Positions 14,602-57,949 are shown, counted from the stretch's first letter. The stretch is DNA of 64,000 bases from Betaproteobacteria bacterium (GCA_947467315.1 CANIID010000001.1:579-64578), one strand, 5' to 3'. The notes: generated by a model from the sequence alone, not told the origin. Numbers and translations: made by a program.

Positions 14602-15525
14602 TCAAGGCCCAATGCGCGGGTTGTAGAAGAATTCACGAATCATGAATTCTTCCAGACCCGCGTTGTCGCGCTCCCGCGCGGAGAGCGTCACGAATTTGTT
14701 CATGCGGTGCGAGCGCCACTGAAAATCGCCCTGCACGTTGGCGCGTATGATTTCGATCATTTTTCGCACCACCGCCAGTTCGATGTTCTCATTGTTGCCC
14801 TTGCGCACTTCAACCAGTTGCTGCAGGTTGCGGCGCGCATCCGTGTGCCAGCCGTTGAACATGAATTCGGCGTAATCGACGCCGCGGTTCTTCATTGTAA
14901 AAATACCACCGCTGCGATTAGGATCGCTGCGATTAGGATCGTAACCCACGCCCTGTGCTTTTTGCGTGGCCAGATTGGCCACCGCCAGCCGCGTGGCGCG
15001 CGCGTTTTCATCTTCGGCGGGTGGTGATGCCACTGCGGGAGATTCGCCACGCGCGCGGCGCTGCGCTTCCACGTAGGCCGCGAAGTCTTCTGCCGGTGGT
15101 GCGCGCATCGGCGGTGGCGCGGCTTCCTTGGGCGCCGGTGGCGTGATTGCGATTACTGGTGGCGGCGCGTTCCTGGGCGGTGTAGGGGGCGTTTGTGGCG
15201 CGCGCGCCACTGGCGGCGGCGTTGGCGCGGCCACGGGTGGTGCCGGCGGTACCGGTGGTACCGGTGGTACGATGGCGCGCCGCTGCGGCGGCGTGACCAC
15301 CGCTGGAGGCGGGCCGGGTATGGGTTGCAGCTTGACGGTTAGCGGCGGCGGCGAAGCATCATCCAGCGGCGGCTTTTGTATTTGCCACTGCCACAGCACG
15401 GCAACATGCAGCAGCACCGACAGTGCGATCGCGAGCTGGAAATTCGAGATGGTGATGCCATCGCGCCGCCGGTCAATGTTGCCGGCCTCGTCATGCATGG
15501 TGCAGAGGGAATGCAGAAAAACCAT
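14602..15525 (-). CDS. Proline-rich membrane-anchored protein with TonB-like architecture, function unknown
   Basis: One N-terminal TM helix, a long P/A/V-rich linker, and a C-terminal globular domain. Start is ATG 15525 or 15498. Confidence 0.6.
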   Translation of the reverse strand: MVFLHSLCTMHDEAGNIDRRRDGITISNFQLAIALSVLLHVAVLWQWQIQKPPLDDASPPPLTVKLQPIPGPPPAVVTPPQRRAIVPPVPPVPPAPPVAAPTPPPVARAPQTPPTPPRNAPPPVIAITPPAPKEAAPPPMRAPPAEDFAAYVEAQRRARGESPAVASPPAEDENARATRLAVANLATQKAQGVGYDPNRSDPNRSGGIFTMKNRGVDYAEFMFNGWHTDARRNLQQLVEVRKGNNENIELAVVRKMIEIIRANVQGDFQWRSHRMNKFVTLSARERDNAGLEEFMIREFFYNPRIGP

Positions 15526-15543
15526 TTAAAAACATATACTTAT
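15525..15543 (+). repeat. AT-rich 19-nt boundary motif, copy 1 (TTTAAAAACATATACTTAT)
   Basis: Matches consensus TTTAAAAACAWATASTTAC. Abuts the ATG at 15525. Confidence 0.6.
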
Positions 15544-15554
15544 AATATTGTCGC

Positions 15555-15881
15555 TCAATGCAGTGTGCGGATGTTGGGTACCACCAGCAAACCCACGTTG
15601 AGCAGCGTCACGCGTTTGCCCAGCATCACCACGCTGCCGTGGACGCGGTTGTTGCCGGTATCGCTGTATTCAAAATCGTAAGCGCGTTGCAATTTCAAGC
15701 GCCCTTCGCTGTCGCGCGCCGGTTTCAGGCTCGCGATGCCGACGGTGTCGTCGAGAAACAGCAATCCTTCCGCTTCGCATGCCGCGCGCGCCGCGCGCAC
15801 CGCCGCTTCACGCGCTTCTAGGCTGTCGTACCACAGCCAGCCCAACAATAGGAGGGCGATCAGGCCCAGGAGTTCCAGCAT
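15555..15881 (-). CDS. Small membrane-anchored protein, DUF3301-like
   Basis: N-terminal TM helix, then WYDSLEAREAA..AAR.AC and LLDDTV motifs remembered from DUF3301 proteins. Confidence 0.5.
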   Translation of the reverse strand: MLELLGLIALLLLGWLWYDSLEAREAAVRAARAACEAEGLLFLDDTVGIASLKPARDSEGRLKLQRAYDFEYSDTGNNRVHGSVVMLGKRVTLLNVGLLVVPNIRTLH

Positions 15882-16011
15882 AAAAGTTGCACTCGATTTT
15901 CAAAGCCCGATTTTTCCATGCATCGCGCGATGCGGATAGTATGCCGGTTCGTGTATTCTTCGTGAAATAAAAAGTGTGAGCAAACGTACGGACGTTCGCA
16001 AGGAAAGGACC

Positions 16012-17007
16012 ATGACTCTCCTCAAGACTACCCGGTATGGCTTCGTTGCCGCGCTGGTTTCAACGCTGCTAGTGCCGGCCTGCGCGTGGGCGCAAGGCTG
16101 GAAGCCCGATCAGCCGGTCGAAATCATTGTCAATTGCGCGCCGGGCTGCGGGCCGGATCGCATGTCGCGGCTGATGCAGGCGGTGTTCCAGAACCAAAAG
16201 TTTGTCGAAGCCGCGCTCTCGGTGCAAAACCGCACGGGCGGCGGCGGTGCGGTCGCGCAAACGTATCTCAATCAATTCGCCGGCAACGGCCATTACCTTT
16301 TTCACACCGGCAAATCGGTGCTGACCACGCACGCGATGGGGCGCAGTGTCGCGCCGTATACCGAGCTCACGCCGATCGCGAATTTATTCGGCGAGTACAT
16401 CGGCGTAGCGGTGAAAGCGGATTCGCCGATAAAGTCCGGCCGCGATTTGATCGAGCGTATGAAAAAAGACCCTGCCGCGGTGAGCTTCGGCATCGCCACC
16501 AGTATCGGCAACACCAATCACCAGGGTGTGGCGGGTGCGTTGAAGAGCGCCGGCGTTGACATCCGCAAGGCGCGCAACGTGGTGTTTCAGTCGGGCGCGC
16601 TGGCGATCGTCGCCATGCTCGGCGGCCACATCGACGCGGTGCCGGTTTCGGTGGGCAGTTGGGTGCCGCATATGAAAACTGGAGCGGTACGCGTGATCGC
16701 AGTGTCGTCGGCGGAAAGATTGCCGGGATTTTTTGCCGGCATCCCGACGTGGCGCGAGCAAGGCGCGAATGCGGTGGTGTCGAACTGGCGTGGCGTGTTC
16801 GGGCCAAAGGGCATGAGCGCCGCGCAAGTCGCGTACTGGGAAAATACGTTTCAACGTCTTGTCGAAACCCCGGAATGGAAAGCGGAGATGGTGACGTTAA
16901 ACGGACTCTCGGAATTCATGGGCGCCGCGCGTCTGAAAAAGTACATGGACGAAGATTACGCCGAGATCAAGGCGTTTCTGCTGGCGCTGGAGTTGGCGAA
17001 GAAATGA
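16012..17007 (+). CDS. Bug/TctC-family substrate-binding protein (variant N-terminal motif)
   Basis: Signal peptide ends AWAQ. VEIIVNCAPGCGPD replaces the usual PPGGGTD. AGGAAAGG RBS before ATG 16012. Confidence 0.8.
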   Translation: MTLLKTTRYGFVAALVSTLLVPACAWAQGWKPDQPVEIIVNCAPGCGPDRMSRLMQAVFQNQKFVEAALSVQNRTGGGGAVAQTYLNQFAGNGHYLFHTGKSVLTTHAMGRSVAPYTELTPIANLFGEYIGVAVKADSPIKSGRDLIERMKKDPAAVSFGIATSIGNTNHQGVAGALKSAGVDIRKARNVVFQSGALAIVAMLGGHIDAVPVSVGSWVPHMKTGAVRVIAVSSAERLPGFFAGIPTWREQGANAVVSNWRGVFGPKGMSAAQVAYWENTFQRLVETPEWKAEMVTLNGLSEFMGAARLKKYMDEDYAEIKAFLLALELAKK

Positions 17008-17978
17008 ACGCAGTAACGCGACTGATATTTGTGCTTGCGTGCGTTTCGGTTTGCGACCTCGCGTGGGCGGCCGCCGCCGGCTGGCGCCCCGAGCGCCCGG
17101 TGCGTCTGCTGGTGCCGCAAGCACCCGGCGGCGCCGCGGATGCCGCCGCGCGCGCCATTACGCCCAAGCTGCACGAGTCGCTGGGCCAGCCGTGGGTGCT
17201 CGACAATCGCGGTGGCGCGGCAGGCAATATCGCGTCTGAAATCGTCGCGCGTGCCAATCCCGATGGGCATACCGTGTTTCTCGGCCTAAACACCATGGTC
17301 ACCGTCAATCCCACGCTCTACAAGCTGCCGTTTGATGTGGCAACAGAGCTGATCCCGGTATGCCGCGTGACCTATGGGCAATACCTGTTGCTGATTCATC
17401 CCTCGGTTAAGGCCGAGAACCTCAAGTCGTTTATTGATCTGGGCAAGGCACGCAGCGCGCCGTTTAACTACTCGTCGGCAGGCATGGGTTCGCCGTCGAA
17501 TCTGGCGATGGAATTGTTTCGATTGCGCGCGGGCATTGCCATGACGCATATTCCGTACAAGGGCGGCGCGCCCGCGACCGCGGCTTTGCTCGGTGGCGAG
17601 GTGCAAACGCATTTCACCAATCTGGTGCTGGCGTTGCCGCACGTGCGATCAGGGCGTTTGAAGGGGCTGGGTATTTCCGGACCGAAACGCGTCGCGCTGG
17701 CGCCCGAGATGCCCACCATTGCCGAGCAGGGCTTTGCGGGCTTTGACGTGACATCCTGGTACGGATTGTTCTTACCCGCGAAAACGCCCATGGCCATTTT
17801 GCAGACGCTGGAAGCTGAAACCGCGAAGGCGCTGGCGGCTCCCGATGTGATTGAACTGATGTCGCGTCAGGGCATCGAGGCTGCGTTTCTTCCGCAGGGC
17901 GCGTTCGCCGAGCAAGTGAAACGCGAAACCGCGACGTGGGCGAAAGTCATTCGCGAAGCGAACATCAAGGCGCAATAA
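17004..17978 (+). CDS. Bug/TctC-family substrate-binding protein
   Basis: ATGA overlap with the upstream stop. Signal peptide, then RPVRLLVPQAPGGAAD. Confidence 0.85.
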   Translation: MNAVTRLIFVLACVSVCDLAWAAAAGWRPERPVRLLVPQAPGGAADAAARAITPKLHESLGQPWVLDNRGGAAGNIASEIVARANPDGHTVFLGLNTMVTVNPTLYKLPFDVATELIPVCRVTYGQYLLLIHPSVKAENLKSFIDLGKARSAPFNYSSAGMGSPSNLAMELFRLRAGIAMTHIPYKGGAPATAALLGGEVQTHFTNLVLALPHVRSGRLKGLGISGPKRVALAPEMPTIAEQGFAGFDVTSWYGLFLPAKTPMAILQTLEAETAKALAAPDVIELMSRQGIEAAFLPQGAFAEQVKRETATWAKVIREANIKAQ

Positions 17979-18007
17979 CGAATTACGGCGTGTAACTGTT
18001 CACGTTC

Positions 18008-18130
18008 CAAGGAAGGGGCGGTTCAAAGAAACTTCTTCCCCTTCAGGGGGAAGGCCGGGATGGAGGTGGGGTAAACATGGTCGAAACCCCCACCCCCATC
18101 CTAACCTTCCCCCTGAAGGGGAAGGGGCTG
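18008..18130. repeat. Composite palindromic repeat, family B
   Basis: Two CTTCCCCTTCAGGGGGAAGG-type hairpins flank the inverted pair GGGATGGAGGTGGGG / CCCCCACCCCCATCC. Related copies at 27884 and 30981. Confidence 0.6.
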
Positions 18131-18192
18131 AGCCGTATGTGCTTTCGCCAACACTTTCTGTCCCCCCTGAATAATTACGACGCCGTAACGAT

Positions 18193-18573
18193 TTATCGCG
18201 CGCGTCTTTTTTTCTTGCCGCTCAAATCCACTGTCGCGCCGCCCTTGATCATCGCCTTCAACACTGGCTCGAAAAACGAGGTGGTCTTCAGCACGCGTGT
18301 ATCCTGACTGACAATTTTGTCGGAGTTTTGGGTGCGATAGGCGTACCACGCCGGATCGGCAAACAGTTTTTTGCGCCGCCGCTCGCGATCATCCCAGTCC
18401 TTGTACGCCCACATGTGAACGATCATGTTCTGCATGCCGACTTCGCTCACGTAAAAGCCGACCATGTTGCCGAGGTGTTTGGTAATGATCGGCAGCGCTT
18501 CTTTTTCGTAGATTTTCAGAAAGTCGTGCAGTTGATGTACGCGCAGGGTGTACATGCGTTCTTCGAGTATCAT
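18193..18573 (-). CDS. NIPSNAP-family protein
   Basis: YTLRV..L..FLKIYEKEALPI..KHLGN.VGFY..E.G..N..VHMWAY pattern. Confidence 0.7.
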   Translation of the reverse strand: MILEERMYTLRVHQLHDFLKIYEKEALPIITKHLGNMVGFYVSEVGMQNMIVHMWAYKDWDDRERRRKKLFADPAWYAYRTQNSDKIVSQDTRVLKTTSFFEPVLKAMIKGGATVDLSGKKKRRAR

Positions 18574-19172: not shown

Positions 19173-19185
19173 GGGTTTCAGTAGG

Positions 19186-20346: not shown

Positions 20347-20407
20347 GGCGTCTCCCTTGTTGTCATGTGGTGTGACGAAAGTAATCTCTTCGTCGCGTGC
20401 TGGCGTG

Positions 20408-21400
20408 CTATTCCGCCTGCAAGCCCGCCAGCTTTACCAGCTCTGCTGAACGCTTGATCGATGTCACGACAAACTCACGAAACGCGGCGGGCGTGTTGCC
20501 GACCGGTTCCATGCCGATGGCCGCGAGGCCGTCGCGCACCGCGGCAACACCAAGCGCCTTGCGGATTTCGGCGTGCAGTTTCGACACAATCGCAGCGGGT
20601 GTTTTCGCCGGCGCGAACACGCCGTACCAGCTTGAATCCATTTCCATGCCTTTGACGCCGGCTTCGATCATGGTGGGCACATTGGGCAGCAGCGGTGAAC
20701 GCGTAGGCGCGTTGTAGGCGAGCGCGCGGATGCGGCCTGCCTTCACTGCGCCGATCAGTGTGCCGGGGTTGGCGATGGCGATTTGAATTTCGCCACTGAT
20801 GAGCGCCACCGTGACCGGGCCGCCGCCTTTGTACGGCACATGCGTCAGATCAATGCCGGTGCGCGCCGCAAACAGCGCCGCCGCGAGGTGCGTGACATTG
20901 CCGACACCCGATGAACCGTAGGCGAATTTTGCGCCGGGGCGCTTCGCTTGTTGAACTAATTCCTGCACTGTTGTCGCGGCGACGGTGGGCGCAACCGTCA
21001 GCAGCAGCGCTTCCGACGAGGCGAGATTGGTAATGGGCTCGAAACTTTTCACCGCATCAAACGGCAGTTTGCGCGCGATGCTCGGGTTGATAGCGAAGGC
21101 CGCTGAGGTGATTAACAGCGTGTAGCCATCGGGATTGGATTTCGCAACGATATCCGCCGCCAGTATGCCGTTTGCGCCGGGACGATTGTCGAGCACCACG
21201 GATTGCCCCAACTGCGCGGTGAGTTGCGGCGTGATGACCCGTGCAACCGCATCCGGCGACCCGCCCGGCGCGAAGCCGAGCACCCAGCGCACTGGACGCG
21301 TGGGGTAATCCTGTGCGGCGGCGAGCACGGGCAGCGCGAGCGCGCAGGCGGCGAATAAGGTGCCGACAGTAGGCGTTAAAAAATTATGCAATAAAAACAT
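20408..21400 (-). CDS. Bug/TctC-family substrate-binding protein
   Basis: Signal peptide ends AAAQ, then DYPTRPVRWVLGFAPGGSPD. Confidence 0.85.
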   Translation of the reverse strand: MFLLHNFLTPTVGTLFAACALALPVLAAAQDYPTRPVRWVLGFAPGGSPDAVARVITPQLTAQLGQSVVLDNRPGANGILAADIVAKSNPDGYTLLITSAAFAINPSIARKLPFDAVKSFEPITNLASSEALLLTVAPTVAATTVQELVQQAKRPGAKFAYGSSGVGNVTHLAAALFAARTGIDLTHVPYKGGGPVTVALISGEIQIAIANPGTLIGAVKAGRIRALAYNAPTRSPLLPNVPTMIEAGVKGMEMDSSWYGVFAPAKTPAAIVSKLHAEIRKALGVAAVRDGLAAIGMEPVGNTPAAFREFVVTSIKRSAELVKLAGLQAE

Positions 21401-21408
21401 ATAGTTAC
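21390..21408 (+). repeat. AT-rich 19-nt boundary motif, copy 2 (AATAAAAACATATAGTTAC)
   Basis: Overlaps the start codon of the Bug gene at 21400. The CAT inside the motif is that gene's ATG on the minus strand. Confidence 0.6.
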
Positions 21409-21570
21409 ATGTATTCTGGGTGAGCGAGCAATGACGCGGCGCGGCGCTGTGGCATTGTAAAGTGAATTCCCGCTGGCGAGACGGCGAGAATTGAAGATAA
21501 TGGTGCGCGGTAAGGGGAGCGGCTGCTCACAACAGCGCGTGAGTACATTATTCAACCGACTGGAAAACCT

Positions 21571-25139: not shown

Positions 25140-26033
25140 TTAAACCGTCGCCAACGTCGTCGCATCAAAAAACGGCTTGCACCCCTTGATCTGCGTGCGA
25201 TGCATCAGCCGCCGCGTGTTGGCGTCGAACGCATCGCGCCGGTGCATGGCGGCGCGGTTGTCCCACATGATCATGTCGCCGAGTTGCCACACTTGATACC
25301 ACTCGAATTCTTTTTGCGTGGCGTGCGCCCACAGGCGGTTTAGCAGGTCTTCGCTTTCGTCCAGCGGCAGGCCGATGATGTAGGCGGATTTGCGGCGGCC
25401 GAGAAACAGCGCATTACGCCGCGTTTCCGGGTGCGTGCGGATCAGCGGGTGAATCGCGCCCGGCGCTTCGCGCGGATCGATGGCATCTTTGAAGCCGACG
25501 CGCAGTTCGCCCGCGCTGTTGCGGCTGGAATCATGGCGACAGGTTTTGCCGATGATTTCGCGCTTTAATTCGGCGGGCAGGGTGTCGAACGCGCGATACA
25601 TATTGGCAAAACCGGTGTTGCCGCCGCTGGGTGGCACTTCAATCGCGTAAAGCGCGCTGCCCATCGGGCACAGCTCGTTGTAGCTCATGTCGGTGTGCCA
25701 CACGGCTTCGTAGTTGCCGAGGCTGCCGATGGGTTTGCCATCGACCTTGATGTTCGACATCACGGTGATTTCGGGATGGTGGTTCACCACGTCCTTGCTG
25801 GCATGTACCGGCGCTTTGTCGAGTTCGCCGAACAGGCGCGCGAAGGCCAGAAACGCCGGATCGCCGAGTTTCTGTCCACGAAAGCGCAGCACGAGATGGT
25901 CGTTCCAGGCTTGGCGGATTTGCGTGTAGACGTCCGTGCTGACGGGCTGTGATAAATCCACGCCGACGATATCGGCGCCCAGCGCCGCGCCGGTGGGGAT
26001 GACGGTGATTTTGGTGTGGGTGGCGGTGTCCAT
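25140..26033 (-). CDS. TauD/TfdA-family Fe(II)/2-oxoglutarate-dependent dioxygenase
   Basis: WHTDMSY (HxD iron motif), the family-typical N-terminus GA.I.GVDLS, and C-terminal WDNRA..HR. Confidence 0.85.
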   Translation of the reverse strand: MDTATHTKITVIPTGAALGADIVGVDLSQPVSTDVYTQIRQAWNDHLVLRFRGQKLGDPAFLAFARLFGELDKAPVHASKDVVNHHPEITVMSNIKVDGKPIGSLGNYEAVWHTDMSYNELCPMGSALYAIEVPPSGGNTGFANMYRAFDTLPAELKREIIGKTCRHDSSRNSAGELRVGFKDAIDPREAPGAIHPLIRTHPETRRNALFLGRRKSAYIIGLPLDESEDLLNRLWAHATQKEFEWYQVWQLGDMIMWDNRAAMHRRDAFDANTRRLMHRTQIKGCKPFFDATTLATV

Positions 26034-26040
26034 GATTTAT

Positions 26041-26059
26041 ATAAGTAGATGTTTTTAAA
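26041..26059 (-). repeat. AT-rich 19-nt boundary motif, copy 3 (reverse complement TTTAAAAACATCTACTTAT)
   Basis: Lies 8 nt upstream of the TauD-type gene ATG (26033). No SD sequence between them. Confidence 0.55.
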
Positions 26060-26118
26060 GGGATTTATAATGGCTGTCGCGCGCAGTGCACGGCGCTGCT
26101 GGAATCATACACCGCGCC

Positions 26119-31134: not shown

Positions 31135-31992
31135 ATGGCAATCCCCAGACTAAACGGCATTATCAAAGCACTCGAATCCGGTAAAAACGCGTTCGTATGT
31201 TTCCAGCCCGGCGACACCGCCAGCGCGCAAGCCGTCGCCACCGAAAAATACGACGGCGTGGTGTTTGAAATGGAGCATGGCGCTTACGATATCAAGTCGC
31301 TGCGCGATTGCCTGCAATACATGCTGAACCGCCAGCAGATCGTGGCTGGCGGCACGCTCGCGCCGCAGGTCACGCCGATGGTGCGTATACCGCCCAACGG
31401 CGCGGAAATGAATCAGTGGATCGCCAAGCAGGTGCTCGATCAGGGCGTGTTCGGCATCGTGTGGCCGCATATCAGCACCGTGGAAGAAGCGCGCAACGCC
31501 GTGGCCTCGTGCCGCTACGCACGCCCTGCCGGTGCGCCGCGCTACGAGCCTGCAGGCCAGCGGGGTGACGCGCCCACCAATGCCGCGCGCTTCTGGGGCA
31601 TATCCGCGCAGGACTATTACGACCGTGCCGACGTATGGCCACTCGATCCCAAGGGCGAAATTCTCGTCGCGATTATGTGCGAAGACGTGGTGGGCATGAA
31701 AAACCTGCCGCAGATTCTGAAAGAAGTGCCGGGCATCGGCGCGGTCATCATCGGCGAAGGCGATCTGTCGCAGAACCTCGGCTTCCCGCGTCAGTACAAA
31801 CACCCGGTGGTGGTGGCGGCGATCAACGAAATTTTGTCCGCGTGCAAAGCCGCCAATGTCGCTTGCGGCCATCCGCACGTCGAAGCCGATAACGTCGATG
31901 AAGTGGTGGCGCAGGGCTTCAAGTGGCTGATGCCACGGCCCGCGCGCTCGAACGCGGTGCTGGATAAGGCGTTGAAGTTGTCGGGGCGGTGA
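31135..31992 (+). CDS. HpcH/HpaI-family aldolase (or citrate-lyase-beta-like)
   Basis: DGVVFEMEHG, then VRIP and IMCE, the family pattern. GGAGA RBS. Confidence 0.75.
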   Translation: MAIPRLNGIIKALESGKNAFVCFQPGDTASAQAVATEKYDGVVFEMEHGAYDIKSLRDCLQYMLNRQQIVAGGTLAPQVTPMVRIPPNGAEMNQWIAKQVLDQGVFGIVWPHISTVEEARNAVASCRYARPAGAPRYEPAGQRGDAPTNAARFWGISAQDYYDRADVWPLDPKGEILVAIMCEDVVGMKNLPQILKEVPGIGAVIIGEGDLSQNLGFPRQYKHPVVVAAINEILSACKAANVACGHPHVEADNVDEVVAQGFKWLMPRPARSNAVLDKALKLSGR

Positions 31993-31996
31993 TATT

Positions 31997-32015
31997 GTAA
32001 GTATATGTTTTTATT
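31997..32015 (-). repeat. AT-rich 19-nt boundary motif, copy 4 (reverse complement AATAAAAACATATACTTAC)
   Basis: Lies 10 nt upstream of ATG 32025. No SD sequence. Confidence 0.6.
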
Positions 32016-32024
32016 GGGTATTTT

Positions 32025-32459
32025 ATGACCGAAAAAGCCGCAACGCTGCGCGATCATCTCGACGATTTCATCGCCGATACGTTGTCGCGCTGCACGCGCT
32101 GCGGCAAGTGTTTTGAAGCGTGCCCGATGACGCGCTACAGCGACGGCCTGTCGCAAGCCGAGCCGAAAGCCGTGGTGTCGGGCGTGCTCGATTGGTTGCA
32201 GCAAACGCCGGGCAATGCGGAAAGTGTGGCGTGGCTCAAGGTATGCACGCAATCCTCGCGCTGCATCGAGGCCTGCCCTGAAGGCATCAACGCCATGAAA
32301 ATGGTGCGCGTGGGGCAGATGAGTGCGATGGGTTCCCTTGGCGTACCGGCTGCGCATGCGGCGATGAGCGGGCGCGAGGCGAAGGATTTTTTCCGCGTCA
32401 TCAATGCGTTTTCCGAAACGCAGATGACGTCCGACGAAATTGATCGTTGGCAGCGATAA
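32025..32459 (+). CDS. 4Fe-4S dicluster protein, HdrC / GlcF-N-terminal-like
   Basis: CTRCGKCFEACP and CTQSSRCIEACP cluster motifs. Confidence 0.7.
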   Translation: MTEKAATLRDHLDDFIADTLSRCTRCGKCFEACPMTRYSDGLSQAEPKAVVSGVLDWLQQTPGNAESVAWLKVCTQSSRCIEACPEGINAMKMVRVGQMSAMGSLGVPAAHAAMSGREAKDFFRVINAFSETQMTSDEIDRWQR

Positions 32460-38142: not shown

Positions 38143-38571
38143 TTATCGCGCCAACCGTCGCACCGCATCCGGCAAGGCGATTGACTTCTGTGTTTGCGGA
38201 TCAACCCACACCGATACGCCAAAACCTTCCGCAGCAATAGCACCGCCGCTCTTCAAGAGATAGTGCGTGCGCACGCTGCTGTTGCCCATTTTTCCCAGAT
38301 AGACTTCCACTGTGATCGTGCCGGGATAGTGCAGTGGCGCACGAAACGAACACGCCGAGGCGGCGAGTACCGGTATGGGTGCGGGTGGCGTCATCGCCAG
38401 CCCCAGCGACTGCACCCAGCGCATGCGCGCTTCTTCCATGTAGCGGTAGTACTCCGCGTTATTCACGTGGTTGTCTGCGTCCATGTCGGCGAAGCGCAGC
38501 GGCAGTTGGTATTCAAAGACCTTGAGCAGCGTAGCGGCCACGTCGATGTCGGTACTGGTGATTTCAATCAT
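38143..38571 (-). CDS. 4HBT/YbgC-type acyl-CoA thioesterase
   Basis: RFADMDADNHVNNAEYYRYMEEAR hotdog-fold motif. Start at MIEITS (38571). Confidence 0.75.
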   Translation of the reverse strand: MIEITSTDIDVAATLLKVFEYQLPLRFADMDADNHVNNAEYYRYMEEARMRWVQSLGLAMTPPAPIPVLAASACSFRAPLHYPGTITVEVYLGKMGNSSVRTHYLLKSGGAIAAEGFGVSVWVDPQTQKSIALPDAVRRLAR

Positions 38572-38594
38572 AGAGGGCGGATTTAAAATAAATG

Positions 38595-38613
38595 AATAAA
38601 AACAATTGGTTAC
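38595..38613 (+). repeat. AT-rich 19-nt boundary motif, copy 9, degenerate (AATAAAAACAATTGGTTAC)
   Basis: Two mismatches to the consensus core. Lies 24 nt upstream of the thioesterase ATG, which has no SD. Confidence 0.45.
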
Positions 38614-38789
38614 GTTATTTTCGCGCGCACTAGTTCCTGCGCGTGGAGAGGCACGCATTGTACTCGTGGCCATGCGTTGCTTGAGGTCGAGATTTTATTT
38701 ATCCACCCGACGGTGAAACGCCGCGGTTGCGCGGCTTGTTGGCGCGAACGCGAATACCGTTCTGCTTGAACGGCGCGGGTTAAAATCGC

Positions 38790-39449
38790 ATGAATTCAAA
38801 TGATTATGCGACTGCTACAGGAGTCTTGTTGATTAGCGCTCCCGAACGATTGTTCGATCCTGCCACGATCTCGGCATTGCTGCGTTTGCCGCCACCGACT
38901 GCAGACCCGCTGGATTTGCATATCGGCGAGATCACCGAGGGCACGAAGGTGAACGATGCTGCGGTGCTGGTGCCGATGGTCGCGCGCGACGGCGGCGTCA
39001 ATCTGCTGTTTACCCAGCGCACGCCGCATCTGACGGCCCATGCCGGACAAATCAGTTTTCCCGGCGGGCGTGTCGAGGCCACCGATGCCGGACGCGAAGA
39101 CACCGCCTTGCGCGAAACCGAAGAAGAGATCGGCCTCGCGCGGCGCCATGTCCGGGTGCTCGGCACGCTGCCGGTGTATCCGCTGCCTTCCGGCTTTCGC
39201 ATTACGCCGGTGGTGGGCTGGATCGAAGCGCCGTTCGAGACGCAGCCTGATCCGTTCGAAGTCGCGGATATTTTTGAAATTCCGTTGGCGCATTTTTTGC
39301 ATCCGACGCGCTACCAGCGCCACGAATACGATTTCAACGGGCGGCATCGTCATTACCTGGCGATACCGTATGAAGGCCGTTACATCTGGGGCGCCACGGC
39401 CGGCATGCTGATGGTGCTGGCGCGCGTGTTGGCAGCGCGCGGTGCGTGA
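38790..39449 (+). CDS. NUDIX hydrolase, CoA-pyrophosphatase-like
   Basis: Nudix box GQISFPGGRVE....E.TALRETEEEIGL. Confidence 0.8.
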   Translation: MNSNDYATATGVLLISAPERLFDPATISALLRLPPPTADPLDLHIGEITEGTKVNDAAVLVPMVARDGGVNLLFTQRTPHLTAHAGQISFPGGRVEATDAGREDTALRETEEEIGLARRHVRVLGTLPVYPLPSGFRITPVVGWIEAPFETQPDPFEVADIFEIPLAHFLHPTRYQRHEYDFNGRHRHYLAIPYEGRYIWGATAGMLMVLARVLAARGA

Positions 39450-42812: not shown

Positions 42813-43739
42813 CTAGTCGTAGCGCCGCGCCTGCGCGCGCAGCCGGTCTTCCGTCAGCGTGCGGTACGACGCGAGCCGTGTCGCGGCGATTTTCCCGGCG
42901 GCGGCCGCGTGTGTGATCGCGCAGCCCGGTTCCGTTCGGTGGGTGCAATCGCGAAAGCGGCACTGCCCGAGCCAGGTGCGAAACTCGATAAACGCGTGCG
43001 CGATGTCTTCGGCGCTGATGTGGTGCAGGCCAAACGATTGCAGGCCCGGCGAATCGATCAGGTGGCTGCTGGCGTTGATGTGCAGCAGGCGCGCGCCGGT
43101 GGTAGTGTGCTTGCCGGAGTCGAGCGCGACGGACGTTTCCGCCACGGCCATCATGGCGTCGGGCACGAGCTTATTGACCACGGTGGATTTGCCCATGCCG
43201 GATTGCCCCACCAGCACGCTGGTGTGGCCTTCGAGCAATGCGCCCAGCGGCGCGATATCCTGTTTGGCACAGATACCCTCGACGCGATAGCCGAGTGAGC
43301 GATATACCGCGAGCGCGTCCCACGCGGCGGCGAATTGAGGCAGATCATTTTTGTTGAGCACGATCAGCGGCGCGATGCCGCCATGCTCACAGGCGGCGAG
43401 GCAGCGGTTGATCAGATCATCGTAGAAGCTCGGCACCGGCGCGATCACGATCACCACTTGCGTGACATTGGCGGCGATGAGTTTTTGCTTGTGGGCGTCG
43501 GAGCGGTAGAGCAGGGTGGTGCGCGGCAGTACCACTTCGATGACGCCGCTGTTGTCGCCGCTGTGCTGAATGTTGACCCGGTCACCGCAGGCGATGTCGC
43601 TGCGTTTGCCGCGCGTCGCGCATTCGATCAGCGTGCCGTCGGCAAGTTCGACGCGATAACGGCGGCCGAAGCTGGCGACAACTTGACCGGCGAGTTGCCC
43701 CGATGGTGCTGCTGGTGCACGCGTTTTATGGTCCGTCAC
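42813..43739 (-). CDS. rsgA: Ribosome small-subunit-dependent GTPase A
   Basis: VLNK.D, then GQSGMGKST, and the C-terminal zinc knuckle CRFRDCTHRTEPGC. Confidence 0.88.
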   Translation of the reverse strand: MTDHKTRAPAAPSGQLAGQVVASFGRRYRVELADGTLIECATRGKRSDIACGDRVNIQHSGDNSGVIEVVLPRTTLLYRSDAHKQKLIAANVTQVVIVIAPVPSFYDDLINRCLAACEHGGIAPLIVLNKNDLPQFAAAWDALAVYRSLGYRVEGICAKQDIAPLGALLEGHTSVLVGQSGMGKSTVVNKLVPDAMMAVAETSVALDSGKHTTTGARLLHINASSHLIDSPGLQSFGLHHISAEDIAHAFIEFRTWLGQCRFRDCTHRTEPGCAITHAAAAGKIAATRLASYRTLTEDRLRAQARRYD

Positions 43740-44074
43740 AAATCAAATAACGCATCGAGCTTGGCCGCGCAAATAAAATCGTTCTCGGACAAACCCTTGA
43801 TCGCATGCGTGACATACGACACGCGGCACTGGTTATAACCCACCGTGATGTCGGGATGATGGTCTTCGCGGTGCGAAATCCACGCGGCGGCGTTGACGAA
43901 CGCCATCGCCTGATAATAGTTTTTGAAGGCATACGTTTTGGCGATCACGCCGCCGGTGTGCTCCCAGTCCTTGAGCTGCTTCAACAGCTTGGTGATTTCA
44001 TCGCTGCTCAGGGGCGACACACCGCCTTCGCAGGGTTTGCATTTACTTTTGGCGAGATCGATGGCGGCAGTCAT
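43736..44074 (-). CDS. phhB: 4a-hydroxytetrahydrobiopterin dehydratase
   Basis: HHPD....Y..V.......GL..ND motif. ATG 44074 (TTG 44080 is also possible). 4-nt overlap with the rsgA start. Confidence 0.85.
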   Translation of the reverse strand: MTAAIDLAKSKCKPCEGGVSPLSSDEITKLLKQLKDWEHTGGVIAKTYAFKNYYQAMAFVNAAAWISHREDHHPDITVGYNQCRVSYVTHAIKGLSENDFICAAKLDALFDL

Positions 44075-44090
44075 AGTCAATTAAATATCG

Positions 44091-44109
44091 TTTAAAAACA
44101 TATAGTTAC
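44091..44109 (+). repeat. AT-rich 19-nt boundary motif, copy 5 (TTTAAAAACATATAGTTAC)
   Basis: Exact consensus. Lies 16 nt upstream of the phhB-like ATG, which has no SD. Confidence 0.6.
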
Positions 44110-44116
44110 GAATAAA

Positions 44117-45358
44117 TCACGACTGTCCCTGCAAGCGACTGATGCGCGCCAGCGCCGGCGGATGGGAGTCATAGAACATTGAATGCAGCGGGTCGGGCGT
44201 GAGTGTCGAGGCATTGTCTTTGTAGAGCTTGGTGAGCGCGGACACCAGGTCGGCGGCGGAGGCATGTTGCGCGGCATAGTGATCGGCTTCGAACTCATGT
44301 TTGCGTGAGTACATCGCCAGCAACGGTTGCAGCAAAAACGTGAAATTCGGAATCACCAGGAAAAACAGCAACAACGCCATCGCCGTGGAAGGTGTGGTCA
44401 CATTCAGCCCCGCGTAAAACCACGCCTCGCCCATCACCGCGCCGAGCAGCCACAGAAAAAAGAAACTCGCGGCGAAGGTCCAGGCGATACGCTTCACCAC
44501 GTGTTTCAGTTTGAAGTGGCCGAGTTCATGCGCCAGCACCGCTTCTACCTCGGTCGGGTTCAGGCGCTCTAACAGCGTGTCGAAAAACACGATGCGTTTG
44601 GTTTTGCCGAAGCCGGTGAAATACGCATTGCCGTGACTGCTGCGTATCGAACCATCCATCACCATCAGCCCCTTGACCTTGAAGCCGCAGCGCGCGAGCA
44701 GGCTGTCCACCCGCTCTTTCACCGCCGGGTTGTCCATCGGCGTGAATTTATTGAACAGCGGCGCGATCCACAGCGGGTAAATCGCCAGCAGCAGAATATT
44801 GAAGCCCATCCACGTGAACCAGGTGTAAAGCCACCAGTACTCGCCCATCTGCGCCATCAGCCACAACACGGCGGCGGCCAGCGGCAGACCAAACGCCGCG
44901 CCGACCAGCAGGCCTTTGAAAAAATCTTTCCAGAACAGCGCGGGCGTTATTTTATTAAAGCCGAAGCGCGCCTCAACGCGAAACGTGCTGTAGAGGCTGA
45001 ACGGCAGTTCGGCCAGTGTCATCACCACCACGGTCAGCACGATCAAGGTCAGGCCGCGCGCGATGCCATCAGGGAGCAACGAGGCGGATGCCTGATGCAG
45101 CCATTCCAATCCGCCGCCAAAGGTGAGGCCAAGCGCGAGTGCCACTTCAAGCGCACCCGACGCCAGCGCCAGACGCGTTTTGGCGCAGGTGTAATCCGCG
45201 GCGCGCTGGTGAGACTCAAGATTGATCTGGCCGGTGAACTCGGCGGGCACCGCGCCGCGGTGCGCCGCGACATGGCGCATATGCCGTGTGCCGAGCCAGA
45301 AGCGCAGGCTCGCCGCCGCCAATATCGCCGCGAGAAACGCCATTCCAAATGCGTTCAT
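44117..45358 (-). CDS. M48-family (Ste24/HtpX-like) membrane zinc metalloprotease
   Basis: [10 protein letters not shown] zinc motif, multiple TM helices, and a distal E.EAD. Confidence 0.8.
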
Positions 45359-50117: not shown

Positions 50118-50128
50118 GGGGTTTCTCC

Positions 50129-50147
50129 GTAAGTATTTGTTTATAAA
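50129..50147 (-). repeat. AT-rich 19-nt boundary motif, copy 6 (reverse complement TTTATAAACAAATACTTAC)
   Basis: Immediately upstream of the GGAGA RBS of the thiolase gene. Confidence 0.55.
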
Positions 50148-50237
50148 GTAATTTTTTAAAATTTTCGGGCGGGATTTCAACTGAGTTTACGCGCCGCCAA
50201 TGCGCCTGTCGAGATGGATGCTGCAACGCGCAAAATA

Positions 50238-51884: not shown

Positions 51885-52091
51885 GAAGGGGAGGTGTTTT
51901 CGCGCGGCGCTTTGATTTGTTGTTTTTGCGTGGTGCGATTATCCCACTTTTCGTACGAGCTCCTATGGGCCGACTTGACGGCGCACAACTATGGCGCACC
52001 ACGCACCACGCTGTTGCACCGATAGGGAGCGGCGCGTGGACGCGATGTCCAAAATTGTGCGCGCACGTGCTGGGAAGGTTACTAAAAACAC

Positions 52092-52110
52092 AATAAAAAC
52101 AAATAGTTAC
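52092..52110 (+). repeat. AT-rich 19-nt boundary motif, copy 7 (AATAAAAACAAATAGTTAC)
   Basis: Lies about 30 nt upstream of the sigma-54-like promoter. The core AAACAAATAGTTA matches the IHF consensus WATCAANNNNTTR at 12 of 13 positions. Confidence 0.55.
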
Positions 52111-52139
52111 ATTATTGCTGTGGCGACGGATCCGGACGT

Positions 52140-52155
52140 TGGCACGCAATCTGCT
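52140..52155 (+). promoter_or_regulatory. Candidate sigma-54 (-24/-12) promoter TGGCACGCAATCTGCT
   Basis: GG and GC elements are exactly 12 nt apart. Lies about 37 nt upstream of ATG 52191 of a nitrogen-related operon. Confidence 0.5.
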
Positions 52156-52190: not shown

Positions 52191-53549
52191 ATGACCGATA
52201 TCACCAAGCTTTATGATGCCCACGCGGATTTATCCGCACCGTGTTCGTGCGGCCGGCATCGTTCACAACAGGAACATGAAACACACGCGGCGGTGGATCA
52301 CGAAACGCTGGGCCGCGAAGTTGTCGAGTCCGCGATGGTGCGCGCCTTGTTTCCCGACGACCGCGCACGGCGGCGCTTTCTCGGCGCGGTGGGCGCCAAC
52401 ACCGCGATGGCGGCGATTGCCAGCGTGCTGCCCATCGGGGCGATGCAGGCATTGGCGCAGGACAAGCGCCCGCTGGAAAAGAAAAATCTCAAAATCGGTT
52501 TCATTCCGATCACCTGCGCAACCCCTTTGATACTCGCGCACCCGCTGCGCTACTACGCCGCCGAAGGTCTGGAGGTGGAGGTGATCAAAACGGCGGGTTG
52601 GGCGCTGATCCGCGACAAGGTGCTGAACAAGGAATACGACGCCTCGCACTTGCTGGCGCCGATGCCGATTGCGATCTCGATGGGCATTGGTTCGTCACAA
52701 CAGGCGATGAATGTCGCCACCATACAAAACGTCAACGGGCAGGCGATCACGCTGGCGAACAAGCATAAGGCCAGCCGCGACCCAAAAACCTGGAAAGGTT
52801 TCAAATTCGCTGTGCCGTTCGAGTTTTCGATGCACAATTTTCTGCTGCGTTATTACGTCGCCGAGCATGGCCTTGATCCCGACAAAGACATCCAAATTCG
52901 CGTGCTGCCGCCGCCGGAGATGGTGGCGAATCTGCGCGCCGGCAACATCGACGGCTTTCTCGGTCCTGATCCGTTTAACCAGCGCGCGGTGTACGAGGAA
53001 GTGGGGTTCATTCACATATTGTCGAAAGAGTTGTGGGACGGACACCCGTGCTGCTCGTTCGGCGCACCGACGTCGTTTATTAAAGAAAATCCCAATTCCT
53101 TCGCGGCCTTGTTCCGCGCGGTGTTAAAGGGCGCGGCGCTGGCGCGCGACCCGGCCAATCGCAAGACCATCGCCGAATCGATAGCGCCGGCGAATTACCT
53201 GAATCAGCCGGTGGCGGTGCTCGAACAGGTGCTCACCGGCAAATACGCCGACGGCTTGGGCAACATTAAAAATGATCCGTCACGCGTGGATTTCGATCCC
53301 TTCCCCTGGTACTCAATGGCAACGTGGATTTTGTCGCAGATGAAACGCTGGGGTTACATCAAGGGCGACGTGCGCTGGAAAGATTTGAGCGAGCAAATTT
53401 ATTTGCTTACCGACGCGCGCAAACACATGACCGCGATGGGCTATAAGCCGCCGTCCGAGAACAACAAGAAAATTGTCGTCATGGGCAAGGTGTTCGACCA
53501 CACCGCGCCGGATGCGTACTTGGCTAGCTTCGCCATCAAGAGAACGTAG
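52191..53549 (+). CDS. NrtA/CmpA/CynA-family ABC transporter substrate-binding protein with Tat signal
   Basis: RRRFLGAVGANTAMAA twin-arginine signal after an N-terminal extension. GFIPITCATPL motif. Confidence 0.8.
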   Translation: MTDITKLYDAHADLSAPCSCGRHRSQQEHETHAAVDHETLGREVVESAMVRALFPDDRARRRFLGAVGANTAMAAIASVLPIGAMQALAQDKRPLEKKNLKIGFIPITCATPLILAHPLRYYAAEGLEVEVIKTAGWALIRDKVLNKEYDASHLLAPMPIAISMGIGSSQQAMNVATIQNVNGQAITLANKHKASRDPKTWKGFKFAVPFEFSMHNFLLRYYVAEHGLDPDKDIQIRVLPPPEMVANLRAGNIDGFLGPDPFNQRAVYEEVGFIHILSKELWDGHPCCSFGAPTSFIKENPNSFAALFRAVLKGAALARDPANRKTIAESIAPANYLNQPVAVLEQVLTGKYADGLGNIKNDPSRVDFDPFPWYSMATWILSQMKRWGYIKGDVRWKDLSEQIYLLTDARKHMTAMGYKPPSENNKKIVVMGKVFDHTAPDAYLASFAIKRT

Positions 53550-53571
53550 GCACAAAGGGAGGGCAATAAAC

Positions 53572-54408: not shown

Positions 54409-54411
54409 ATC

Positions 54412-55323: not shown

Positions 55324-55343
55324 CCTGAACCCGAGAGGAGAGC

Positions 55344-55829
55344 ATGATGAAAAAAACCGCCGTCACTGCCAGCACACATAAACCCATGACCCGTTTTGAT
55401 GTCACCGAACTGGTGGTCGAAGCGCGGCTGAAAAAAGGCCTGAGCTGGGTAAAAATCGCCAAAGCCGTAGGCTCCAGCAAAGAATGGACCACCGCAGCGC
55501 TGCTCGGTCAAATGAAAATGACCAAGCCGCAAGCCGAGGCCGCCGGCAAATTGCTAGGCCTGCCGCCGTATGCGATTTTGTTGCTGCAGCAGGCGCCGTA
55601 CAAAGGCTCGCTGCCCACTGCGGTGCCGACCGATCCGTTGATCTACCGCTTTTACGAACTGGTGAGCGTTTACGGCACCACGTTCAAAGAGCTGATTCAC
55701 GAAGAGTTCGGCGACGGCATCATGAGCGCCATCGATTTTAAAATGGATATGCAACGTCAGGCCGATCCGAACGGGGATCGTGTGCAAATCGTGATGAGCG
55801 GTAAGTATTTGCAGTACAAGACGTATTAG
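55344..55829 (+). CDS. cynS: Cyanase (cyanate hydratase)
   Basis: C-terminal GDGIMSAIDF....R..DP.GDRV.I...GK.L.Y is the cyanase signature region. Confidence 0.9.
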   Translation: MMKKTAVTASTHKPMTRFDVTELVVEARLKKGLSWVKIAKAVGSSKEWTTAALLGQMKMTKPQAEAAGKLLGLPPYAILLLQQAPYKGSLPTAVPTDPLIYRFYELVSVYGTTFKELIHEEFGDGIMSAIDFKMDMQRQADPNGDRVQIVMSGKYLQYKTY

Positions 55830-55834
55830 TTTGG

Positions 55835-55860
55835 GTAGGGCGGGAGCCATCCCGCCCTAC
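55835..55860. terminator. Bidirectional hairpin between convergent cynS and the tartrate dehydrogenase gene
   Basis: Perfect 11-bp stem GTAGGGCGGGA / TCCCGCCCTAC with a 4-nt loop. Confidence 0.6.
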
Positions 55861-55866
55861 ATCTGA

Positions 55867-56931: not shown

Positions 56932-56991
56932 GCATGACTCCGGGTTGTTGCACGCGTACGCGGCGCGCGATTGTACGAATGTGCAAATGCA

Positions 56992-57023
56992 AAGGGCAGC
57001 CGGAGGTTACCCCGGCTGCCCTT
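56992..57023 (-). terminator. Hairpin downstream of rpmE
   Basis: 12-bp stem AAGGGCAGCCGG / CCGGCTGCCCTT with an 8-nt loop, 22 nt after the stop. The trailing sequence is only moderately U-rich. Confidence 0.5.
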
Positions 57024-57044
57024 GTAAACCTGCCAGCGAAAAAA

Positions 57045-57329
57045 CTACGCGGCGGCCTGCGGTTCAGCGGCGGCTGGAGCCGTGGTCGCAGCGGCAACAG
57101 CGGCCGGCGCGCCTTTAGTCGCGGGCGTGCGCGTGCCGTATTTCTGGTTGAAGCGCTCAACGCGACCGGCGGTATCGACGATCTTTTGCTTGCCGGTGTA
57201 GAACGGATGGCACGACGAGCAGACCTCGACATGCAGATCCTTACCCAGGGTCGAGCCGGTTTTCCACGTCGCGCCGCAACTGCACGCAACGCTCATCTCA
57301 TTGTATTCAGGGTGAATTTCGACTTTCAT
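57045..57329 (-). CDS. rpmE: 50S ribosomal protein L31 (Zn-ribbon type) with Ala/Pro-rich C-terminal tail
   Basis: IHPEY....CSCG.......[19 protein letters not shown]. Confidence 0.9.
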
Positions 57330-57399
57330 GGCATTATCCTGCCGGGTTGTCCCGGAGCAAATAGTAGACTAAAAGGGTGCGGATTATCGACGATTTTGG

Positions 57400-57843
57400 C
57401 TATCGAAGCAAGGGTCTTTGACCCGGCGCCCAGTTCTCCAGCAGGGCACAACAGCGCTGGATCGCTTTTTCGCCCGTTTCGCGCGGTACCGGCCAAAAAT
57501 GGGATTGCCCGGAAAGCACATAAAGCGACACGAAATAGAGCTCCCCATGCCGGGTTTCGATGCTTAAGGTGCCGTTGTCGTAGGCCATTCCGGCCAGGGT
57601 GTGTTTTCCGGGCTCAAGGTTCACGCGAAAGTAGGTTCTCGGAAGCGTGGCGCCGATGAGTCTGCCGTCTATCCACAGTACGGTATCTGTTTCTGGGGTG
57701 TCCGTGGTCGGACGATAGACGTAAAGGGTTGAACTGCCGGGATGACTGGAAAATTGCTTGGCTTCGGAGTCGCGCTCACCCGTGGCCTGCGGCGTGGACG
57801 CGCAGCCCGCGAGCAGCATCAACAGGAGAAGATATCTAAAAAT
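57400..57843 (-). CDS. DUF2846-like lipoprotein, probable non-canonical start
   Basis: Lipobox LLAGC. The only canonical in-frame start (TTG 57822) leaves 4 residues before the Cys (5 if the next-codon ATG, 57819, is used). An in-frame ATT at 57843 follows AAGGCGG and would give MFRYLLLLMLLAGC. Confidence 0.55.
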   Translation of the reverse strand: MFRYLLLLMLLAGCASTPQATGERDSEAKQFSSHPGSSTLYVYRPTTDTPETDTVLWIDGRLIGATLPRTYFRVNLEPGKHTLAGMAYDNGTLSIETRHGELYFVSLYVLSGQSHFWPVPRETGEKAIQRCCALLENWAPGQRPLLR

Positions 57844-57930
57844 AGAACCGCCTTATTGCGGAGGCAATGTAGATATCCTAGACCAGATTCGCCTGCCGTG
57901 CCTGCACGGAGGGTGCGGTATATAAATTAA

Positions 57931-57949
57931 TTTAAAAACAAATACTTAC
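57931..57949 (+). repeat. AT-rich 19-nt boundary motif, copy 8 (TTTAAAAACAAATACTTAC)
   Basis: Lies between the rho stop and the lipoprotein gene start, followed by GGAGAA as in copy 6. Confidence 0.6.

Follow-up and report, generated by a model that had tools for sequence, protein, structure and literature searches.

A dispersed, highly conserved element of ~37 bp resembling an IHF bending site in an uncultured Burkholderiales lineage

Why should one short AT-rich sequence recur, nearly unchanged, at the gene boundaries of a GC-rich bacterial genome? The question is raised by a stretch of 64,000 nucleotides from a Betaproteobacteria bacterium (GCA_947467315.1, CANIID010000001.1:579-64578; hereafter the window, GC ~60%), in which a preliminary description had listed nine copies of an AT-rich 19-mer, all of them next to a gene start and none inside a gene body. 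Four explanations had been put forward: (a) a site for integration host factor (IHF) or another DNA-bending protein, (b) a -10-like promoter element giving short-leader or leaderless transcripts, (c) an A/U-rich enhancer of translation initiation replacing the Shine-Dalgarno (SD) sequence, and (d) a dispersed repeat family. We find that the 19-mer belongs to a larger conserved element that is dispersed through the genomes of an uncultured lineage, and we consider it probable, though with no great assurance, that each ~37-bp copy is a near-optimal bending site for a protein of the IHF family (DNABII), acting on the architecture of the DNA.

The repetition itself is real. A search of the whole window with TTTAAAAACAWATASTTAC, allowing up to 3 mismatches, returned 9 matches, compared to 0.00 expected from 100 dinucleotide-preserving shuffles. 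Furthermore, a weight matrix of 37 columns, which was trained on the copies of relatives and then run over the window, identified 11 copies with at least 33 bits, while the range from 15 to 33 bits was empty. Eight of the nine copies described earlier were thereby confirmed in position and strand, and the ninth, the degenerate AATAAAAACAATTGGTTAC (38595-38613), which the search with 3 mismatches misses, was recovered by the matrix at 45 bits; the total, however, has to be raised from nine to 11 (Table 1). No match was obtained when the whole window was scanned with the Rfam covariance models at the gathering threshold.

The aligned flanks and the matrix agree on a conserved unit of ~37 bp, which exceeds the 19-mer. 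If the core 17-mer is numbered T1, A2 to A6, C7, A8, W9 (W, A or T), A10, T11, A12, S13 (S, C or G), T14, T15, A16, and C17, the unit consists, in this order, of an A-rich box at positions -10 to -5, a W-W step (AA or TT) at -1/0, the core, and a tail of one purine and five A or T (R-W5). The box, the AA/TT step, and the tail carry conservation past the 19-mer. The strictness of each column was read from 137 copies that the matrix identified in 575 kb of lineage DNA (a biased set, as each locus had been picked for holding one copy). T15 is present in 137/137 copies and T14 in 136/137; position 13 is occupied by C or G, and position 16 by A in 128 copies, by G in 9, and by a pyrimidine in none; position 6 is A in 125 copies, T in 12, and G or C in none, and position 9 is a purine in 87% of copies. 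Within columns -10 to -5, the four central ones contain exclusively A or T, with AAAATA and AAAAAA as the commonest forms, and throughout the flanks degeneracy takes the form of W instead of fixed bases, with information fading gradually outward. Positions -1/0 are AA in 74 copies, TT in 48 (122/137 taken together), and another pair in 15, with a mutual information of 0.62 bits. Since AA and TT are one base-pair step seen from either strand, this is the degeneracy of duplex DNA that is read by its shape.

A palindrome or operator with the symmetry of LysR-type sites (AAC-N5-GTT) was considered for the element and rejected, as C13 breaks the symmetry in 57% of copies, and no inverted repeats, hairpins, flanking palindromes, or repetitive extragenic palindromes (REPs) were detected within or beside the copies. 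Furthermore, it should be noted that position 17 has the character of a dialect, the C giving way to T or A in the closest other species (L124 at 4001, 8604, and 20499; L125 at 2885, 8618, and 14219; L numbers designate loci).

In order to compare the element with a well-characterized IHF site, we used the H' site of lambda attP, the kink steps of which lie, in the 1IHF crystal structure, at bp 28/29 and 37/38. The H' site reads AAAAAA-GCA-TT-GCT-TATCAA-TTTG-TTG (PMC1807965), and IHF sites comprise an A-tract, WATCAR, and TTR, with two kinks 9 bp apart, one of which lies within the consensus (PMC1874591 Fig. 1; bioRxiv 10.1101/382655), and with a TT step on the A-tract side (PMC1874591; bioRxiv 10.1101/382655); the expressions "TT/TT mismatch at the kink site" and "H'44A" (bioRxiv 10.1101/382655) agree with the kink positions given above. 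An A-tract (4-6 A in the half-site opposite the consensus) is not obligatory for IHF sites in general. Each of the parts of H' has its counterpart in the element, that of WATCAR being approximate. The A-tract (-10 to -5) lies at an offset identical to that in H'; the first kink step, which is TT in H', corresponds to -1/0 and the second to A8pA9, 9 bp away; WATCAR corresponds to A4-A9 (AAACAA), N4 to A10-S13, and TTR to T14, T15, and R16, exactly 4 bp after the WATCAR block. A template of these four elements, with 17 points in all, scores 14.1 at the predicted offset, compared to 10.0 at the next best offset and 10.5 for the best on the reverse strand (mean over all offsets 6.3, sd 1.9). In nearly all 137 copies, 5 of the 6 positions of the WATCAR block match, the canonical T being replaced by A at position 6 in the 125 copies counted above, and the T of the other 12 (seen in L124, L126, L041, and L060) restores AATCAA-N4-TTR. 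Moreover, the alternatives at positions 6, 9, and 16 are of the IHF type. Of the explanations offered initially, an IHF or bending site is thus the one we favor: its original support, a match of the core to the IHF consensus at 12/13 positions, is now supplemented, at the spacings of H', by an A-tract and by a further AA/TT kink step.

The distribution of the element was determined by scanning TAAAAACAWATASTTAC against a set with a single genome for each bacterial and archaeal species. This revealed at least 113 loci, and about 70 among the matches listed come from metagenome-assembled genomes (MAGs) of uncultured Betaproteobacteria or Burkholderiales with 57-64% GC, the sources among the matches listed being lakes, glacier-fed streams, soil, and reactors. 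Many MAGs of this lineage have several matches each, and the flanking boxes are conserved in these, whereas matches in AT-rich genomes are without flanking boxes and look like chance. As this strict scan demanded C17, relatives with another base at that position are under-sampled. Lake-metagenome contigs and two MAG assemblies at NCBI match the window at 99-99.9% identity. In IMG/VR, all viral contigs together yielded 94 single strict matches, five of them with the extended motif, and the element is essentially absent there. A full-text literature search for the motif as a sequence string, in six forms, returned no paper. As a description, the term dispersed repeat family therefore holds, with a family that is lineage-wide. 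Several lake MAGs of ~60% GC that carry the element have been deposited as 'Bordetella parapertussis' (L005, L011, L015, L017, L030, and others), a name that is almost certainly a mislabel of this uncultured Burkholderiales lineage.

Conservation in related genomes, proposed as a check in the preliminary description, was followed at orthologous sites within syntenic 22-kb loci, which were retrieved via homologs of the NADP-malic enzyme (MaeB) of the window (amino-acid identity to the window 93% for L124, 90% for L125, 86% for L126, and 81% for L127; L047 was compared as well). Copies are kept at orthologous positions in L124, L125, and L047, with losses in some species (Table 1). The copy between the aldolase and ferredoxin genes survives even in a 24-bp gap, with a stop codon inside the element. 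The spacer around orthologous copies is unalignable, and spacers of relatives in which a copy is missing resemble decayed copies, not clean excision. As orthologous copies have been kept while the spacer diverged, this comparison suggests that single sites are under purifying selection and that some turnover occurs. In L047, 8 kb contain three additional copies. Among ten strains of 99% identity, no filled/empty sites were found, at an average nucleotide identity (99%) that is too close to measure selection.

While the copies of the window do lie at gene boundaries, the claim that none is found inside a gene body does not extend to the lineage. In 323 kb of gene interiors, 10 matches of at least 22 bits were identified, compared to 0.37 in synonymous-codon shuffles (maximum 2 in 60 shuffles), which is a 27-fold excess; three of the 10 are the strict matches that had selected their loci, seven are independent, and a few may be miscalled starts. 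Approximately 5-10% of copies lie in gene interiors. These near-copies are written in unusual, AT-rich rare codons within conserved, alignable protein segments, without any change in length (IlvA, gamma-glutamyltranspeptidase, and AddA; Table 1). The lack of indels in the in-gene copies indicates that the motif arose in situ through substitutions, with selection or drive operating at the level of the DNA.

The copies of the window are, moreover, evenly spaced. Their intervals (5297, 4812, 5865, 4651, 5956, 6598, 5496, 6038, 1963, and 5839 bp) have a coefficient of variation of 0.25, with P ~1e-5 to 6e-5 against uniform, equal-weight-gap, and length-weighted-gap placement. Extension to the left added one more interval, of 7.3 kb (copy at L128 3556-3572). 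To the right, more than 11 kb, mostly addA/addB, are devoid of an intergenic copy, and the sole motif-like sequence is the near-copy inside addA, 8.2 kb from the last copy. Intervals of 5.7 kb and 5.6 kb in L125 separate orthologous sites and are therefore not independent evidence. In other MAGs, where copies are more densely placed, the even spacing does not hold: intervals range from 0.9 to 7 kb, with a minimum of 864 bp and no inverted pairs. Even spacing is thus a significant property of this stretch in this species cluster.

Whether the element serves the genes beside it was addressed through its relation to gene starts. The observation that all copies are next to a gene start is correct for the window, but it is uninformative in a compact genome, as it follows from short intergenic regions, and it fails outside the window, where some copies of the lineage lie hundreds of nt from any start. 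The genes flanking the window copies share nothing (hydrolase, antitoxin, PQQ dehydrogenases, TctC, TauD, aldolase, ferredoxin, thioesterase, NUDIX, PhhB, M48 protease, thiolase, binding protein, and Rho). Based on our own codon-usage gene calls, which are crude, for start codons above all, 105 lineage copies were classified: within co-directional gaps, 41 are oriented along transcription and 39 against it, in line with the earlier notice that both orientations occur, while 14 lie in divergent and 11 in convergent gaps. A copy is borne by 20% of co-directional, 22% of divergent, and 19% of convergent gaps. Convergent gaps with a copy measure 0-62 bp, some of them within 0-33 bp, and have long, well-scoring genes on both sides; both stop codons overlap with the element in L013 and L050, and 1.9 kb to the left of the window, in the same species, a gap of 28 bp, filled by a 50.6-bit copy, separates a TctC gene from a convergent FMN-dehydrogenase gene (gene calls of the source). 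GC skew was not linked to element orientation in a test for KOPS- or Chi-like polarity (35/32 versus 27/24, P = 1).

These figures render it highly improbable that the element is a promoter, be it a -10-like WATAST box that yields leaderless or short-leader transcripts or some other signal for the start of transcription. A promoter would agree with the AT-richness and the TATA-like hexamers, with the location of several copies at 0-25 nt from start codons, and with a sigma-70-like TTGAAA-18-AAAAAT that overlaps the A-tract of copy 9 (50129); orientation, however, is random, convergent gaps are occupied, and gaps with and without gene starts bear copies in equal share. In addition, no conserved -35 column at the right spacing was found in the aligned copies, and a sigma-70 consensus scan of 38.1-58.05 kb remained at chance level, with 9 sites compared to 7.1 in shuffles, touching 1 of the 5 copies there. 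An A/U-rich enhancer of translation initiation in place of the SD sequence is scarcely credible. AU-rich unstructured leaders can support initiation, and 6 of the 8 genes starting beside a copy are without an SD-like sequence, but this deficit, which the preliminary description had noted for several copies, is unspecific (SD-like sequences at 2/8 motif-adjacent genes compared to 20/49 other genes, not significant with our crude start calls). Furthermore, the two orientations would yield unrelated RNAs and yet are equally frequent, copies lie past the stops of convergent genes and up to hundreds of nt from starts, and the equivalence of AA with TT and of C with G belongs to duplex DNA, not to RNA. 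Convergent-gap copies, random orientation, and the null results for SD and sigma-70 sequences thus lead us to reject both readings. One copy does adjoin a different kind of promoter-like sequence: a sigma-54-like match precedes the operon starting at 52191 (NMT1_2 binding protein, permease, ATPase, and cyanase), and the center of copy 10 lies ~69 bp upstream of the start predicted from this single match. A distance of about -69 from a sigma-54 promoter is a classic position of IHF. A sigma-54-like promoter beside a copy had been noted before, but it adjoins the copy at 52092, not the one at 50129 to which it had been assigned. The sigma-54 consensus with up to 2 mismatches gave 34 matches compared to 46 in shuffled sequence, and hence no enrichment, only the one at 52140 (1 mismatch) being well placed; the divergent 548-aa protein encoded opposite this operon had no Pfam match.

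Three further readings concern the DNA itself. A small mobile or copy-paste repeat, similar to a MITE (miniature inverted-repeat transposable element), REP, or RIB and carrying an IHF site, is very unlikely. Such a repeat would account for a dispersed intergenic family whose presence varies by species and of which two copies (50129 and 57931) agree at 30/32 positions, and small repeats with IHF sites are known from Correia elements (PMC2229807) and the L linker of BIME-1 (PMC3333891). The copies, however, have no terminal inverted repeats, hairpin, flanking REPs, or target duplication; their information decays gradually into W-degenerate flanks without sharp ends, in-gene copies arose by substitution alone, lost copies decay in place, and the family is nearly absent from viral contigs, so that the fourth initial explanation fails in the sense of a mobile repeat. 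An analog of the uptake signal sequences (USS) or DNA uptake sequences (DUS) would be preferred by the competence uptake machinery and accumulate by molecular drive where tolerated, which in a 60% GC genome would place copies mainly in intergenic DNA. This agrees with a lineage-specific family of many copies and one consensus across species, with a strong core flanked by AT-tracts (R-W5) as in USS, with the two orientations being equally frequent (41:39), with the spacing of the window, since drive is expected to space USS evenly (PMC7811141), with in-gene near-copies that result from codon choice (10 versus 0.37), as do USS in coding regions (PMC2817400), and with an excess of information over frequency that recalls uptake sequences by our own estimate for DUS. 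We nevertheless regard an uptake signal as unlikely: drive gives no cause for four IHF elements in exact register, the core of at least 17 nt contrasts with 9-12 nt in known uptake sequences, only ~5-10% of copies are in genes compared to 35-65% for USS/DUS (PMC2817400), copies occupy conserved orthologous positions, and there are no inverted pairs, the nearest copies being 864 nt apart. Rather unlikely, finally, is recognition by another lineage-specific DNA-binding protein, such as a specialized DNABII paralog, another nucleoid protein, or a reader for self-marking or defense, with a likeness to IHF that is partial or convergent. The ~35 bits of information and the invariant T1-A3 and A10-S13 suggest extra or different contacts, the family is confined to one uncultured clade although IHF is near-universal in proteobacteria, and position 17 varies by sub-lineage (C here, T in L124/L125). 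On the other hand, the register of A-tract, kinks, WATCAR, and TTR, together with alternatives of the IHF type at positions 6, 9, and 16, is most simply that of an IHF/HU-fold protein, and neither an uptake signal nor another protein explains the four-element register.

Several observations nonetheless weigh against an IHF-family bending site. A replaces the T of WATCAR in 91% of copies, which is the sole deviation from the elements of H'. Rsequence amounts to ~35 bits over the 11 window copies compared to an Rfrequency of 13.5 bits, far above ordinary IHF sites, and T1-A3, A10, T11, A12, S13, and C17 are conserved although they presumably lie outside the IHF consensus. We know of no other IHF-bearing GC-rich proteobacteria that carry so sharply conserved a family. 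Moreover, tblastn with the E. coli IhfA and IhfB sequences gave no match for ihfA or ihfB in the ~1.5 Mb of DNA retrieved. The in-gene near-copies and the even spacing of the window, both of which are also hallmarks of USS, belong on the same side of the balance.

IHF as the binding protein, and the role that it would have, are what we infer from the anatomy, distribution, and conservation of the sites. If an IHF-family protein binds, the A-tract at -10 to -5 would fit the protein clamp on one flank, the prolines of the protein would kink the DNA at -1/0 and A8pA9, and the DNA would be bent into a U-turn upon binding. Spread over intergenic regions whatever the orientation of the genes, ~5-6 kb apart in this genome, and held by selection, such sites would likely contribute to nucleoid folding or mark the boundaries of loops or supercoil domains, with occasional aid at single promoters, the sigma-54-like one at 52140 being an example. 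A bolder proposal, which we put forward only tentatively and consider doubtful, is that the evenly spaced array of near-optimal U-turn sites, kept despite the cost of rare codons in long genes, either encodes the folding of the chromosome or the boundaries of its loops in a hard-wired manner or marks self-DNA and spreads by biased uptake; in both cases it would amount to a genome-wide punctuation that is not known for IHF sites from any bacterium.

Table 1. Copies of the element in the window, the adjoining sigma-54-like match, and near-copies inside genes of the lineage. Window copies are numbered from left to right; strands are given in brackets.
Feature	Position	Core	Sequence	Bits	Context	Orthologous sites
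Copy 1	5405..5441 (+)	5416-5434	AATAAAAACAAATAGTTGC	33.5	Overlaps TAG stop of alpha/beta-hydrolase gene 4561-5430; absent from preliminary description	
Copy 2	10701..10737 (+)	10712-10730	AATAAATTCAAATATTTAC	39.0	Over ATG and first codons of second PQQ-dehydrogenase paralog (10709-12388); absent from preliminary description	Retained in 99%-identity strains
Copy 3	15514..15550 (+)	15525-15543			Fills 29-bp gap between minus-strand genes (DUF3301 gene 15555-15881; gene 14602-15525); against transcription	
Copy 4	21379..21415 (+)	21390-21408		49.4	Divergent gap; core contains ATG of TctC/Bug gene (20408-21400, minus)	
Copy 5	26034..26070 (-)	26041-26059			7 nt upstream of tauD-like gene (25140-26033); same orientation as transcription	Upstream of tauD: present in window, L124, L125; absent in L127
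Copy 6	31990..32026 (-)	31997-32015		50.6	Fills 32-bp gap between HpcH aldolase gene (31135-31992) and ferredoxin gene (32025-32459); against transcription	Aldolase-ferredoxin gap: present in window, L047, L124, L125
Copy 7	38584..38620 (+)	38595-38613	AATAAAAACAATTGGTTAC	45.2	Divergent gap between thioesterase gene (38143-38571) and NUDIX gene (38790-39449)	Thioesterase: present in window, L125; absent or decayed in L124, L126
Copy 8	44080..44116 (+)	44091-44109		49.1	Fills 42-bp gap between M48 protease gene (44117-45358) and pterin-4a-carbinolamine dehydratase gene (43736-44074), both minus	phhB-M48 gap: present in window, L124 (as AATCAA); decayed in L125
Copy 9	50122..50158 (-)	50129-50147			Followed by GGAGAA and ATG (50117) of thiolase gene; same orientation as transcription	
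Copy 10	52081..52117 (+)	52092-52110		49.1	306-bp divergent gap; 30 nt upstream of sigma-54-like -24/-12 match	
Sigma-54-like -24/-12	52140..52155 (+)		TGGCACGCAATCTGCT		TGGCAC-N5-CTGC, 1 mismatch; upstream of operon starting 52191	
Copy 11	57920..57956 (+)	57931-57949		46.0	31 nt past rho stop (rho 57981-59240, minus); ~110 nt upstream of DUF2846 gene	
In-gene, ilvA	L067 6384-6400				IlvA segment KNIEQKQRLTF	
In-gene, ggt	L053 1557-1573				Gamma-glutamyltranspeptidase segment EKNYIKQLVTS	
In-gene, fbiC	L026 3604-3620				FbiC linker	
In-gene, reductase-like protein gene	L017 5664-5680					
In-gene, addA	L115 3104-3120				AddA, at helicase motif IV	All ten strains of the window's species

Some further features of the window were recorded alongside the copies. 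Copies 9 and 11 are identical at 30/32 positions (50123-50154 and 57924-57955), including a non-consensus GGAGAA flank, which is the Shine-Dalgarno sequence of the thiolase gene in the former and has no obvious gene to serve downstream of rho in the latter; this identity may stem from duplication or gene conversion between the copies. The PQQ-dependent dehydrogenase, at whose second paralog copy 2 is located, is encoded by three tandem paralogs (9014-14428, 67-77% DNA identity), the second and the third being separated by a cytochrome c gene. Positions 5800-7313 form 1.5 kb without a confident gene (GC 0.53), adjoining a putative antitoxin gene (Unstab_antitox), and the gene content there varies among 99%-identity strains (L128 versus L129). 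A GC-rich inverted repeat occupies 18035-18124, its two 37-nt arms being separated by 16 nt and complementary at 89%; situated between the convergent genes at 17004-17978 and 18193-18573, it could represent a bidirectional terminator or a REP-like element. Finally, a 21-nt tandem repeat at 1671-1817 codes for heptads of the EELQSxN type within a CheB/CheR-PAS fusion gene.

Compared with known systems, the element has most in common with IHF sites of the lambda H' type, with which it shares the order of a 6-bp A-tract, 3 bp, AA/TT, 3 bp, a WATCAR-like block, 4 bp, and TTR, as well as the degeneracy of indirect readout; it differs in the A at the third WATCAR base (91%) and in the near-invariance of N4 and of the three bases between kink 1 and WATCAR. 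Furthermore, H'-type sites are single regulatory or recombination sites, whereas the element would by extrapolation have hundreds of near-identical copies per genome. RIB/RIP (BIME-1) of E. coli are likewise IHF sites that recur outside genes and are presumed to serve DNA architecture (PMC3333891), but in RIBs the IHF site is placed between two inverted REP palindromes, and the title of Boccard & Prentki, as cited in PMC3333891, locates RIBs at the 3' ends of transcription units; the element is without REPs, occurs in all types of gaps, including those within operons, and evolves in situ. The Correia/NEMIS repeats of Neisseria are dispersed intergenic betaproteobacterial repeats with a functional IHF site (PMC2229807), but they are MITEs of 105-155 bp (the 155-bp form having the IHF site) with terminal inverted repeats and filled/empty sites, unlike a ~37-bp element that bears no signs of insertion. 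With USS (Pasteurellaceae) and DUS (Neisseriaceae), the element shares its copy number (11 in 64 kb and 137 in 575 kb, from which genome totals are extrapolated), equal orientations, a core with AT flanks, fairly even spacing, the shaping of coding sequences, and a consensus across species (PMC2817400, PMC7811141), while its core is far longer and AT-rich, with the anatomy of an IHF site, and its copies are almost all intergenic. Likenesses to the arms of dif/XerD, to Tus-Ter, and to the yeast mitochondrial promoter were dropped, as copy number, orientation, or spacing did not fit.

Taken together, the best-supported description is that of a putative stand-alone, highly conserved, and dispersed IHF-type site without a REP or MITE carrier. 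To our knowledge, IHF sites are usually degenerate and scattered, and the only repeated ones ride on REP or MITE elements. An uncultured clade of Burkholderiales appears to keep a near-invariant IHF-type site in approximately one-fifth of its intergenic regions. For annotation, this means that such AT-rich boxes by start codons should not be taken for promoters or ribosome-binding signals. If IHF binds, the family would offer a natural system for studying sequence-encoded bends, chromosome loops, supercoil domains, and the insulation of operons, as well as an IHF site of very high information that would be useful for structural and synthetic work. If IHF does not bind, the family would mark either a new DNA-binding system or the first uptake-signal-like sequence beyond the Pasteurellaceae and Neisseriaceae.

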